This document shows positions 6,226 through 9,907 of a DNA stretch of 64,000 nt, piece by piece. Numbering within the stretch: the first letter of the stretch is position 1; each line of letters begins with the position of its first letter. The notes below the pieces were generated by a model that saw only the letters and a list, made by a program, of their open reading frames with translations, was not told the DNA's origin and did no database searches. The position numbers and the translations under genes are program-made. Source of the DNA: Enterobacteria phage ATK47. The stretch lies in the sequence record NC_055708.1; one strand, given 5' to 3'.

Positions 6226-7218
6226 ATGTTACCTGTCGTCGGAAAACTTATTTCTCCAAAAGAACTGGCTGAGATTATTCCTTTGTCGGAAGCTTACGCA
6301 TCACAAGTGGCTTCTCATCGCGAACAAGTTAATTCGATTATGAACGGTGAAGACCCACGCAAACTTATTGTTGTAGGTCCTTGTTCAATTCATGACCCTA
6401 TTGCTGCTGTTGAATACGGCAAACGTCTGGCTGAACTTCAAACTCGTCTTCCTAATGTTCTGTTAGTGATGCGCGTTTATTTTGAAAAGCCTCGAACTAC
6501 CGTAGGTTGGAAAGGTCTTGTAAATGATCCATATCTTGACGGAAGTTTTGATATGAACCACGGTCTTATAGTTGCACGAACATTGTGTCGTAAACTTCTA
6601 CGTATGGGACTTCCATTAGCAACTGAAGTATTAGACCCATTCACGATTAAGTATCTTTCTGGTATTTTCTCATGGGTTGCTATTGGCGCACGTACGACTG
6701 AAAGTCAGACACATCGTGAAATTGCTTCAGGTCTACCGATGTGCGTAGGCTTCAAGAACGCAACCAATGGTTCTATTAAAGTAGCTACAGACGCGATGTA
6801 TAGTGCCGCCTGGCCTCATCGGTATATGGGTATGGACGTCGATGGTACTGTAGGCATTGTTGAAGCTGAAGGTAATCAGAATACGCATATCGTATTGCGT
6901 GGCGGGACCAACGGCCCGAACTATCATTCTTCTGATATTCAAGAAGCTTCTAACAAAGCAAGGGCAGTAGGTCTGAATCATTATGTAATGGTTGACTGTA
7001 GCCATGCAAACGCTGATGGGCATTATAGCAATCAAATTGGTATTGGTAAAAAATTAGCAGCTAATGATTTGGTCAAAGGAATTATGATAGAATCGTTCCT
7101 ACATGAAGGAAATCAAAAAATTTCTGATAATATGTCCTATGGCGTTTCCGTTACCGATGCGTGCATCAGTTGGGAACAAACTAAAGAGCTGTTAACTTAT
7201 ATTAATAAGGTTCAATAA
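6226..7218 (+). CDS. 3-deoxy-D-arabino-heptulosonate 7-phosphate (DAHP) synthase, class I (AroG/AroF/AroH-like)
   Basis: 330 aa; motifs LIVVGPCSIHDP, VMRVYFEKPRTTVGWKGLVNDP, GARTTESQTHRE and IVLRGG align along its whole length with E. coli AroG as I recall it; AAGGA Shine-Dalgarno; stop overlaps the cd start. Confidence 0.85.
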   Translation: MLPVVGKLISPKELAEIIPLSEAYASQVASHREQVNSIMNGEDPRKLIVVGPCSIHDPIAAVEYGKRLAELQTRLPNVLLVMRVYFEKPRTTVGWKGLVNDPYLDGSFDMNHGLIVARTLCRKLLRMGLPLATEVLDPFTIKYLSGIFSWVAIGARTTESQTHREIASGLPMCVGFKNATNGSIKVATDAMYSAAWPHRYMGMDVDGTVGIVEAEGNQNTHIVLRGGTNGPNYHSSDIQEASNKARAVGLNHYVMVDCSHANADGHYSNQIGIGKKLAANDLVKGIMIESFLHEGNQKISDNMSYGVSVTDACISWEQTKELLTYINKVQ

Positions 7219-8495: not shown

Positions 8496-8611
8496 ACTAT
8501 ATGAAGAGAACACTCTTCTAAGCGGTAGCCTACAACTGAGAGACTTGTCGAAAGAAGGTGAAATTCAGACGAACGTGGCTACTAAATATTATCTCGAATT
8601 GAGAATTTAAA

Positions 8612-8860
8612 ATGATTAAACAATTACAACACGCTCTTGAACTGCAACGCAACGCATGGAATAACGGTCACGAAAACTACGGCGCTTCAATTGATGTTGA
8701 AGCCGAAGCACTGGAAATCCTGCGATATTTCAAACATCTGAATCCTGCTCAGGCTACTCTGGCTTCTGAACTGGAAGCTAAAGATGAATTGAAATATGCT
8801 AAGCCTCTGGCTTCTGCAGCACGCAAAGCAGTTCGTCATTTTGTTATTACCCTTAAATAA
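8612..8860 (+). CDS. rIII: rIII lysis-inhibition accessory protein
   Basis: 82 aa, the same as T4 RIII; located after gene 31 as in T4. Confidence 0.75.
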   Translation: MIKQLQHALELQRNAWNNGHENYGASIDVEAEALEILRYFKHLNPAQATLASELEAKDELKYAKPLASAARKAVRHFVITLK

Positions 8861-9154
8861 GTTTTAGGTGATTCGCTACCTTAGTGCGGCTAGAAAATCG
8901 AGGAGCCGTCGAACTGTCTGATTAATGATTTGCGAATCATTATAGTTTTAAGACCCCGGCAGTTTTACGGTGTACCTCTTGAATGTATTTTATACTATCA
9001 CGCGTCAGAAAAAGGTTATCTGTCTAAGTCGTGGTTGGTATGATGACGGGTTTATGGTTATCCTGTCGTTAAATATCCAAAACCTATGTTCCCCTTGAGG
9101 GCTTGCGCAGGCAATGTCAATAAGTCCTGCATTTTCATTTAAAGAGAATTTATA

Positions 9155-9334
9155 ATGGCAAAACAAGCTAAAGCAAAGAAAGCAGTTGAAAAGAAAGTTG
9201 ATGGTACCTCTAAACGCGCTGGATACAAGCGTGGGTCGAACTCTCGTATTAATCAAACAGTTGAGAAGATCATGCGCAGAGCACGTGCAGTTCTTCGAGA
9301 TGATGCTTCTCGTTTTGGAAAGGTTGTTGCATAA
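9155..9334 (+). CDS. Small lysine/arginine-rich basic protein, 59 aa (below the ORF-track cutoff; 30.9 position)
   Basis: ATG at 9155 to TAA at 9332-9334, read manually: MAKQAKAKKAVEKKVDGTSKRAGYKRGSNSRINQTVEKIMRRARAVLRDDASRFGKVVA; followed at once by a terminator hairpin. Confidence 0.45.
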   Translation: MAKQAKAKKAVEKKVDGTSKRAGYKRGSNSRINQTVEKIMRRARAVLRDDASRFGKVVA

Positions 9335-9339
9335 TTTTA

Positions 9340-9361
9340 GGGAGACTTCGGTCTCCCTTTT
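9340..9361 (+). terminator. Rho-independent terminator (GGGAGAC-TTCG-GTCTCCC plus T-run)
   Basis: 7-bp GC-rich stem, UUCG tetraloop and TTTT seen in sequence. Confidence 0.7.
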
Positions 9362-9393
9362 GTGCGTTTAGGGCAGAAAAAGTTTAAAAAGAT

Positions 9394-9422
9394 GTTTACT
9401 CTCCTGTAGGATGTGTTACTAT
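9394..9422 (+). promoter_or_regulatory. T4-type early promoter
   Basis: GTTTAC at 9394-9399 and TACTAT at 9417-9422, followed by TAGAC; GGAG Shine-Dalgarno and ATG at 9465. Confidence 0.6.
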
Positions 9423-9464
9423 AGACTTGTACCATCTAATCAATAAAACAACCTGGAGAACAAA

Positions 9465-9833
9465 ATGAAAATCAATCTGAACTCATACATCAAATGTAAA
9501 GACCATGACGGTTATAAAGCTATCGAAATTAAAGAATTCCAGTGGATGTTATACAAAGAGCAATTTGAGTTCGTAGGTTGTATGACCCCTGAAGGTCCTT
9601 CTGATGATTTCTCTTGGAAAATTGTGTTAGCAAACTTTTTCACAGGTGACACATACGAATTAAAAACTATTATTACCGGTAAAATTCGTTCAGAAACATA
9701 TGTTGACGAAGAAACTGGTTACTCTGAAGATGTTACATGGTATCAAAATGGACGCATTACAGCAGATAACCTGATCGAAAAAATGAAAGCCAAAGGTGTT
9801 TTAAATTTAGACAATTGGATTAAAGTTGCATAA
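9465..9833 (+). CDS. Hypothetical protein, 122 aa (30.8 position)
   Basis: ORF downstream of an early promoter with a Shine-Dalgarno sequence. Confidence 0.5.
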   Translation: MKINLNSYIKCKDHDGYKAIEIKEFQWMLYKEQFEFVGCMTPEGPSDDFSWKIVLANFFTGDTYELKTIITGKIRSETYVDEETGYSEDVTWYQNGRITADNLIEKMKAKGVLNLDNWIKVA

Positions 9834-9837
9834 AACA

Positions 9838-9866
9838 GTTTACTTTGGTACAGGTTATGTTATTAT
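9838..9866 (+). promoter_or_regulatory. T4-type early promoter
   Basis: GTTTAC at 9838-9843 and TATTAT at 9861-9866, followed by TAGAC, closely resembling the promoter at 9394. Confidence 0.6.
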
Positions 9867-9907
9867 AGACCTGTACCAACAAACAACTTAAACATCCGGA
9901 GAATAAA

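Follow-up and report, generated by a model that had tools for sequence, protein, structure and literature searches.

In phage T4, the messenger RNA (mRNA) of gene 32 carries a pseudoknot in its leader and is subject to autogenous translational control, and lambda N, P22 N and HK022 Nun are small basic RNA-binding peptides encoded early by phages. The locus described here bears a likeness to both kinds of system. It lies at 9155–9334 on the + strand of a 64,000-nucleotide stretch of Enterobacteria phage ATK47 (sequence record NC_055708.1), which is called the window and whose positions are used throughout, and it is the orthologue of T4 early gene 30.9, which encodes a protein of 53–60 aa in a conserved coding frame. 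The explanation that we consider best overall, and that we hold with moderate confidence, is that this orthologue is an early, dispensable, small accessory nucleic-acid-binding factor, with a structured leader shaping its expression. There is nothing unusual about the gene or its terminator, both of which are already known and annotated, with function unknown. The one new observation is a conserved pseudoknot without a described RNA family in the leader, and this alone might be new to a specialist.

Gene 30.9 is one of many conserved T4 early genes without a known function, and the upstream pseudoknot provides a testable handle on it. In time-resolved omics data for T4 (PMC9697503, Table S2), the 30.9 transcript is classed as early, as an earlier note on this DNA had proposed for the gene in the window, and the protein was undetected by mass spectrometry. 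The tryptic map of gp30.9 contains only one peptide of at least 7 aa, which accounts for the missing signal and makes the non-detection uninformative.

The T4 gene 30.9 orthologue and its reading frame

The open reading frame (ORF) extends from the ATG at 9155 to the TAA at 9332–9334 and encodes 59 aa, identical to those given in the earlier note. The earlier note called it unlisted. This is correct in that the ORF falls below the length cutoff of the first-stage ORF list, a cutoff that hides genuine small genes; it is not correct for the public records, where the ORF is known as T4 gene 30.9 and is already annotated as the coding sequence (CDS) ANZ51345.1, "similar to Gp30.9", in KT184310.1 (phage ATK48; genus Mosigvirus, RB69-like T4-type), a record with 100% identity to the window over 8600–9900. 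The translation matches the profile of PHROG 1427 (phrog_1427, function unknown) with E = 2.4e-31 over residues 1–57. By tblastn, the 59-aa protein was matched in 1005 phage records, covering phages of Escherichia, Klebsiella, Enterobacter, Serratia, Yersinia, Proteus, Pectobacterium and Citrobacter and one Pseudomonas phage, and 65 protein clusters of a large protein database match it as well.

T4 gp30.9 (NP_049823.1; UniProt P17310; 58 aa) is ~96% identical to the window protein over 56 aa, and the two genes agree in length class, in their slot between rIII and 30.8, in the downstream hairpin and in the upstream leader; the window protein and T4 gp30.9 differ in the last four C-terminal residues (KVVA versus KQKA). 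The order cd, 31.1, 31, rIII, 30.9, 30.8, 30.7 is common to ATK48 and T4, and the window gene has the position of the gp30.9 family, lying on the strand of the early genes and flanked by rIII (or gene 31) and 30.8. The succession of rIII, spacer, 30.9, hairpin with U-run, early promoter and 30.8 is a fixed order shared by at least nine T4-type phage genera.

The reading frame was assessed by aligning the codons of the 30.9 locus from nine phages of different genera. In the 30.9 frame, 431 synonymous and 587 non-synonymous codon differences were found (42% synonymous), compared with 125 and 872 (12.5%) and 53 and 918 (5%) in the other two frames. The mean pairwise differences at codon positions 1, 2 and 3 were 0.217, 0.193 and 0.386, respectively. 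These counts indicate that the 59-codon ORF is a genuine gene and that its frame had been chosen correctly in the earlier note, which had named frame conservation and codon periodicity in related phages as the check: the frame starting at 9155 is conserved and the alternative is not, with the third position varying at 0.386 against ~0.2 at the others. Eleven residues are invariant in 33 gp30.9 sequences (S19, K20, R21, A22, Y24, K25, R26, N29, R42, V46 and G55).

The conserved start of 30.9 consists of the ATG and then GC(A/T/C)-AA, with a weak purine-rich signal ahead of it, and the start and stop positions are kept in nine genera. In the window, the signal is the weak Shine-Dalgarno-like AAGAGA at 9142–9147 (+), 7–12 nt 5' of the ATG, in which GAGA occupies 9144–9147 with the ATG 8 nt further on; the orthologues have GGAAG, GGAA or GAGG at this site. 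In KT184310, an "ori type 2 repeat" is annotated at 9135–9144, just 5' of the 30.9 start; no family of repeats and no sign of an origin was found there.

Two other frames were rejected. The overlapping ORF with a TTG start at 9186–9371 (+), which had already been judged less plausible, is not a gene: seven of the other eight phages have stop codons in it, only 12.5% of the differences in its frame are synonymous, and it has no family match. The N-terminally extended "11.1 kDa" form in the old T4 annotation is interrupted by an in-frame stop codon in the window and is not conserved, and T4 differs from its close relatives by a 1-nt indel in the stretch of this extension.

A conserved pseudoknot in the 30.9 leader

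The gap between rIII and 30.9 is 294 nt long and is non-coding, because single-base indels occur among close relatives and a stop codon closes the old T4 extension in ATK48. It contains an H-type pseudoknot at 9043–9094 (+), termed module A, which was identified by covariation, a duplex-energy test and a covariance model. The first helix, P1, pairs 9045–9050 with 9062–9067 (GACGGG/CCUGUC), has an 11-nt loop after its 5' arm and is followed by the A-rich linker GUUAAAUAUCCAAA at 9068–9081. The second helix, P2, is formed between the loop (region 9053–9059) and the tail at 9081–9088, and comprises 4–5 bp in ATK48 and T4 and up to 9 bp in other phages.

Both helices covary across 32 distinct versions of the element. 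P1 occurs as GAC/GUC, GUG/CAC, GUC/GAC, GGC/GCC and GUU/AAC, and P2 as UUGGUAG/CUACUAA, GUUGGUU/AACCAAC, CAAGGUU/AACCUUG, UUGUGAG/CUCACAA and GAUGG/CCAUC. Pair counting on an ungapped alignment, in which some tails are still misregistered, gave 74.4% paired cells compared with 63.2% in shuffled data, and the covariation score was 0.331 compared with 0.157, with none of the 500 shuffles as high and all slid controls at 0.195 or below. In an alignment-free test, the cognate loop-tail duplexes had a mean energy of −6.5 kcal/mol compared with −4.1 kcal/mol for non-cognate ones, which was equalled in 0 of 20,000 permutations, and the result stands when one representative per helix type is used. About 25 G-U pairs would become A-C mismatches on the opposite strand, which indicates that the RNA corresponds to the + strand. 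The covariance model has one match in the 64-kb window and matches 47 of 49 other loci (46 of the 48 distinct 30.9 loci, L049 being a duplicate of L009).

Of 768 phage records that match the segment 9037–9135, 752 do so with at least 90% identity. Dhakavirus phages (JS98 group) belong to these records, yet their 30.9 proteins are only ~75% identical; judged by these identities, the leader segment of ~100 nt is more conserved than gp30.9 itself. None of the matching records sampled carries an RNA annotation for it, although the genome of T4 is among the best studied. The greater conservation of the leader is what would be expected if the RNA (leader and hairpin) were the true conserved feature and the ORF were incidental or untranslated, and the missing mass-spectrometry signal in T4 (PMC9697503) and the weak Shine-Dalgarno signal would fit this view. 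We regard it as very improbable, because the synonymous excess and the third-position variation are specific to the 30.9 frame, there are 11 invariant residues, and nine genera share the start and stop positions; the non-detection of the protein is expected from its tryptic map.

Two hairpins follow the pseudoknot. Module B, at 9091–9107 (+), consists of CCC(C)-UUGA-GGG and a conserved CUUGCG, and its few compensatory variants lend it modest support. Module C, at 9107–9130 (+), has the form GCAGG-N14-CCUGC and was recognized by inspection; in other genera, its site is occupied by unrelated sequences that form hairpins too.

The leader was compared with described RNAs. Among 4227 Rfam families, no match was found in the window or in seven related loci, and the element alone gave none at E ≤ 10; small nucleolar RNA matches in this search were at chance level and were caused by the string UGAUGA. 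The Rfam covariance models of H-type pseudoknot riboswitches (e.g., preQ1-I and the NAD+-II pnuC motif) are unmatched by the leader, and a search of the spacer for tRNA-like genes found none. A hammerhead reading of the string AUGAUGA was rejected, as the string is missing from several covarying variants. The leader resembles the 5' half of the pistol ribozyme in its P1 hairpin and in the pairing of the loop downstream of an A-rich linker, and this linker begins with CGUUAAAUA, presumably as in the env25 pistol sequence. A-rich linkers form minor-groove triples in the pistol and pseudoknot hammerhead ribozymes and in the NAD+-II riboswitch (PMC11300833). However, pistol ribozymes are defined by their P2 and P3 helices and G-U junction (PMC6154101), whereas the leader has no counterpart of the pistol P2 (no complementary strand was found by inspection) or of P3 and the G-U cleavage junction in the required arrangement, and its loop is 11–15 nt long compared with 6 nt in pistol. 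Membership in the pistol class was rejected on the absence of P2/P3 and the junction, and the Rfam Pistol model is unmatched at E ≤ 10.

The likeness to the T4 gene 32 leader consists in an H-type pseudoknot 5' of the gene for a (here presumed) nucleic-acid-binding protein in the mRNA of a T4-type phage. The sequence of the 30.9 leader is unrelated to it, without an Rfam match, and the stretch from the pseudoknot to the start codon contains hairpins in 30.9, whereas it is an unstructured A/U tract in gene 32.

Pseudoknotted leaders are typical of autoregulated ribosomal-protein mRNAs. They can be counted in favor of an alternative in which gp30.9 is a small basic protein associated with the ribosome or translation, namely an extra ribosomal protein or a translation modulator, and the leader mimics its ribosomal RNA (rRNA) site as in ribosomal-protein operons. 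The size, charge and disorder of gp30.9 resemble those of small ribosomal proteins, and RIII, the product of the neighboring gene, binds ribosomal protein S1 (PMC9409239). However, no ribosomal-protein family is matched: profile searches of Pfam, NCBIfam and PDB sequences do not place gp30.9 among the small ribosomal proteins (e.g., bS21 and bL35), and the leader, when compared with E. coli sequence including rRNA as a test of rRNA mimicry, shows no similarity to it. This alternative is quite unlikely in our estimation.

In Gaprivervirus, Jiaodavirus, Karamvirus and Moonvirus (loci L004, at ~386–560, L007, L008 and L010), an additional conserved non-coding insert of ~135 nt (GCGGCAAGTGCATGCTACCCCGAGG...CAACAGATAAGAG) lies between rIII and 30.9. 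Neither ATK48 nor T4 contains this insert, for which Rfam and tRNA searches gave no match.

The gp30.9 protein and its putative ligand

The protein has a mass of 6.6 kDa and a pI of 11.35, with 18 Lys and Arg residues compared with five Asp and Glu residues, and nucleic-acid binding is plausible from this composition. The AlphaFold2 model, based on 33 homologues, has a low-confidence N-terminal arm and one helix at residues 30–54, where the predicted local distance difference test (pLDDT) score is 81–87. The model and the conservation suggest that gp30.9 comprises an N-terminal arm that is flexible and rich in Lys and Ala, the invariant core S-K-R-A-G-Y-K-R-x-S-N-x-R and the helix 30–54. The conserved part is the Arg/Tyr/Asn-rich core together with the helix, and conservation is lowest in the Lys/Ala-rich arm. 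When 1.84 billion representative proteins were searched with a profile, 18 relatives were returned; each of them is small, basic and built on the core [ST]SKRAGYKRxSNxR[IV][ND], with variable C-termini, and they gave no functional clue.

The distribution of conservation bears on the histone-like reading of the earlier note, here taken to mean that the protein would bind DNA of the phage or the host and coat or bend it at an early stage of infection. The strongly basic, Lys- and Ala-rich composition is consistent with this idea, and the homologue in Pseudomonas phage PspYZU05 carries a long tail rich in K, A and P that recalls those of histone H1. However, the Lys/Ala-rich arm is the least conserved part and the conserved core is rich in Arg, Tyr and Asn; the model contains no globular fold; and neither HU, IHF, H-NS, Fis nor another DNA-binding family was matched by profile (Pfam and NCBIfam), PDB sequence or Foldseek. 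The description "histone-like or RNA-chaperone-like" thus found no match among the families, PDB sequences and folds searched, and the model shows a disordered basic arm and one helix. A histone-like role appears unlikely to us.

A different likeness is that to the arginine-rich-motif peptides lambda N, P22 N and HK022 Nun: like these, gp30.9 is a small basic protein, mostly disordered, in which a short Arg-rich segment can form a helix. It differs from them in having no sequence homology to them within the family scans made, and neither a nut-like site nor a link to antitermination was identified. RNA is favored as the putative ligand because of this resemblance and because of the structured leader upstream.

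The reading that we prefer, with gp30.9 as a nucleic-acid-binding factor, can be described as follows. Transcription of 30.9 would start at a candidate early promoter at 8970–8998 (+), which was recognized as a sequence match (GTGTAC / 17 nt / TACTAT), or at promoters further upstream with passage through rIII, and the mRNA would have a long leader of ~110–150 nt that includes the conserved pseudoknot. The protein would most likely act early in infection as a small accessory nucleic-acid-binding factor and might bind RNA in the manner of arginine-rich peptides. Its synthesis would probably be controlled post-transcriptionally through the structured leader, possibly by gp30.9 itself.

A protein target was considered as well. 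In this alternative, gp30.9 would be a factor for host takeover or counter-defence, with an acidic protein of the host as its partner in place of nucleic acid, which would explain its dispensability in the laboratory. In a genome-wide knockdown study of T4 (PMC11879866, supplement), 30.9 has a score of 0.04 (p = 0.26) and is classed as "Not Fit", with its function listed as unknown; we infer from this that 30.9 is dispensable on laboratory hosts. The lack of a fitness effect, the location of the early gene in a block of small accessory genes (30.1–30.9) and the wide conservation, which implies a benefit in some conditions, would agree with such a factor. It has no known target, however, and the unusually conserved structured leader would be left unexplained. 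We rate it as improbable, to the same degree as the histone-like role.

Several observations weigh against a nucleic-acid-binding gp30.9 controlled through its leader. The searches of Pfam, NCBIfam, PDB and folds provide no homology that links gp30.9 to a ligand: there is no Pfam or NCBIfam match near threshold, no PDB sequence matches the profile below E = 0.18, and Foldseek finds no PDB match for the model, whose mean pLDDT of 66 signifies moderate confidence only. The best PDB-sequence match, a helix of SlmA at E = 0.18, was treated as chance. Autoregulation by gp30.9 is a possibility drawn wholly from analogy. The predicted stability of the leader is not distinct from that of shuffled sequences in the window (z = +0.2 and −0.06), and z ranges from −2.7 to +1.5 in 19 leaders; the predicted accessibility of the 30.9 Shine-Dalgarno site is average, at 0.48, the median over 36 other window genes being 0.47. 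A hairpin 5' of the ATG that sequesters the Shine-Dalgarno site in minimum-energy folds was dropped, since the predicted accessibility is no lower than for other genes. The candidate promoter at 8970–8998 has a poor −35 box and no match in a generic promoter scan.

The pseudoknot also occurs apart from an intact gene 30.9, which weighs in the same direction. In a 162-kb T4-like contig (IMGVR_UViG_2706796796_000001, 11201–11968, − strand; L059), it is kept directly after rIII, while 30.9 is cut to its first ~13 codons and fused to an unrelated 214-aa ORF. In a 381-kb jumbo-phage contig (IMGVR_UViG_3300011242_000001, 4999–5123, − strand; L075), two tandem pseudoknot-like copies lie in a 125-nt spacer between two tRNA genes. 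They have the same architecture, and loop and tail covary again (ACAGUU/AACUGU); the pseudoknot model matches one copy with 26.5 bits (E = 2e-4), and the other was found by a short sequence pattern only. Because the former contig has a truncated 30.9 and the latter carries its pseudoknot-like copies in a tRNA spacer, the pseudoknot may be an RNA module in its own right, for instance a signal for processing, stability or sensing, and not an operator reserved for gp30.9.

In a broader form, the pseudoknot and the hairpins after it would constitute an undescribed class of functional RNA in T4-type phages, which could be a translational operator that senses a ligand or protein and is recognized by gp30.9 itself, a signal for RNA processing or stability, or a ribozyme with a distant kinship to pistol; we consider this a tentative possibility, less probable than not by a clear measure. 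If it is an operator, a processing signal or a catalytic RNA, the pseudoknot would be a new regulatory RNA for T-even phages and might reveal the role of gp30.9. A gp30.9-recognized operator would make 30.9 the first member of a pair of small basic protein and RNA operator in these phages.

Transcription, the terminator hairpin and neighboring features

The 3' end of the unit is marked by a hairpin of the intrinsic-terminator type at 9340–9361 (+), GGGAGAC-UUCG-GUCUCCC followed by UUUU, with a loop of the C(UUCG)G tetraloop type. The stem pairs 9340–9346 with 9351–9357, the UUCG loop is at 9347–9350 and TTTT is at 9358–9361; the site is annotated in KT184310 with two overlapping terminator features. 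The hairpin has an energy of −14.1 kcal/mol (z = −4.41), with none of 200 shuffles as stable. The stem of 7–8 bp, with five G-C pairs, lies directly 3' of the stop codon. The U-tract of ATK48 is only UUUU before GUG (TTTTGTG), the shortest of all, compared with 5–8 U in orthologues, and this short T-run is the reason that a generic terminator scan gave no match at 9340–9361.

Of 33 distinct orthologous loci, 32 have an equivalent hairpin with a T-run of ~4–8 T after the stop codon. Five types of stem occur, GGGACUC(C), GGGAGAC, GGGAACC, GGGGCUCC and GAGGACUCC, each with its own matching 3' arm, which indicates that the pairing has been kept by double, compensatory changes. The hairpin is thus a conserved structure of the intrinsic-terminator type, and the hairpin that the earlier note read as a terminator after the ORF is real on the grounds of its energy, its conservation and the compensatory changes in its stem.

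A T4-type early promoter for gene 30.8, GTTTAC / 17 nt / TACTAT, matches the consensus at 9394–9422 (+); read as TTTACT-N16-TACTAT, it occupies 9395–9422, 33 nt 3' of the hairpin. The consensus for early promoters of promoter-early stem-loop (PeSL) cassettes in T4 and PST is TTTACW...TAYWAT (PMC4122927). Since this early promoter lies 33 nt further on, the hairpin would end the 30.9 message and is also the stem-loop of a PeSL-like terminator/early-promoter cassette, from which the message of 30.8 starts. PeSL cassettes (PMC2839356, PMC4122927) likewise consist of a stem-loop and then a TTTACW...TAYWAT promoter between small accessory genes. The present case differs from them in its spacer, which in the TTTACW frame is 16 nt compared with 17 nt in the consensus, and in its hairpin, which is conserved with its gene across genera and does not mark an indel boundary. 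Elsewhere in the window, seven exact TTTACW-N17-TAYWAT matches, all on the + strand, occur at 1096, 2280, 3686, 5812, 16741, 29233 and 32076; most end in TACTAT, and from their sequence they are probably T4-type early promoters of the region.

The 5' end of the 30.9 message is less sharply defined. The candidate promoter at 8970–8998 has a −10 box that is perfect for the T4 type; with transcription predicted to begin near 9005, the leader would be ~150 nt long. ATK48, IME08 and several T4-like contigs contain a stretch of 52 nt (window 8987–9038) that is deleted in T4, and the deletion takes out the TACTAT −10 box of this promoter and the next ~45 nt. From rIII to 30.9 there is only one hairpin, a weak one (−6.6 kcal/mol, z = −0.9), so that read-through into 30.9 from upstream promoters is likely. 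The proposal of a discrete transcription unit consequently holds for the terminator and for a candidate promoter of its own, and it does not hold in the sense of isolation from upstream, given the likely read-through and the loss of the −10 box in T4.

Just 3' of rIII, a conserved GAGGAGCC is found at 8900–8907; the GGAG within it is the motif cleaved by RegB. An A/U-rich hairpin with UUUU at 8923–8942, also just 3' of rIII, is too weak to count as a terminator. Downstream of the 30.8 promoter, a 122-aa ORF at 9465–9833 (+) matches phrog_1507, the T4 gp30.8 family, with E = 2.8e-48, and is without a CDS annotation in KT184310. Further upstream, at 6226–7218 (+), the window encodes a 330-aa AroG-type 3-deoxy-7-phosphoheptulonate (DAHP) synthase, which is annotated in KT184310 and adjoins dCMP deaminase; in T4, cd.1 and cd.2 adjoin cd at this place.

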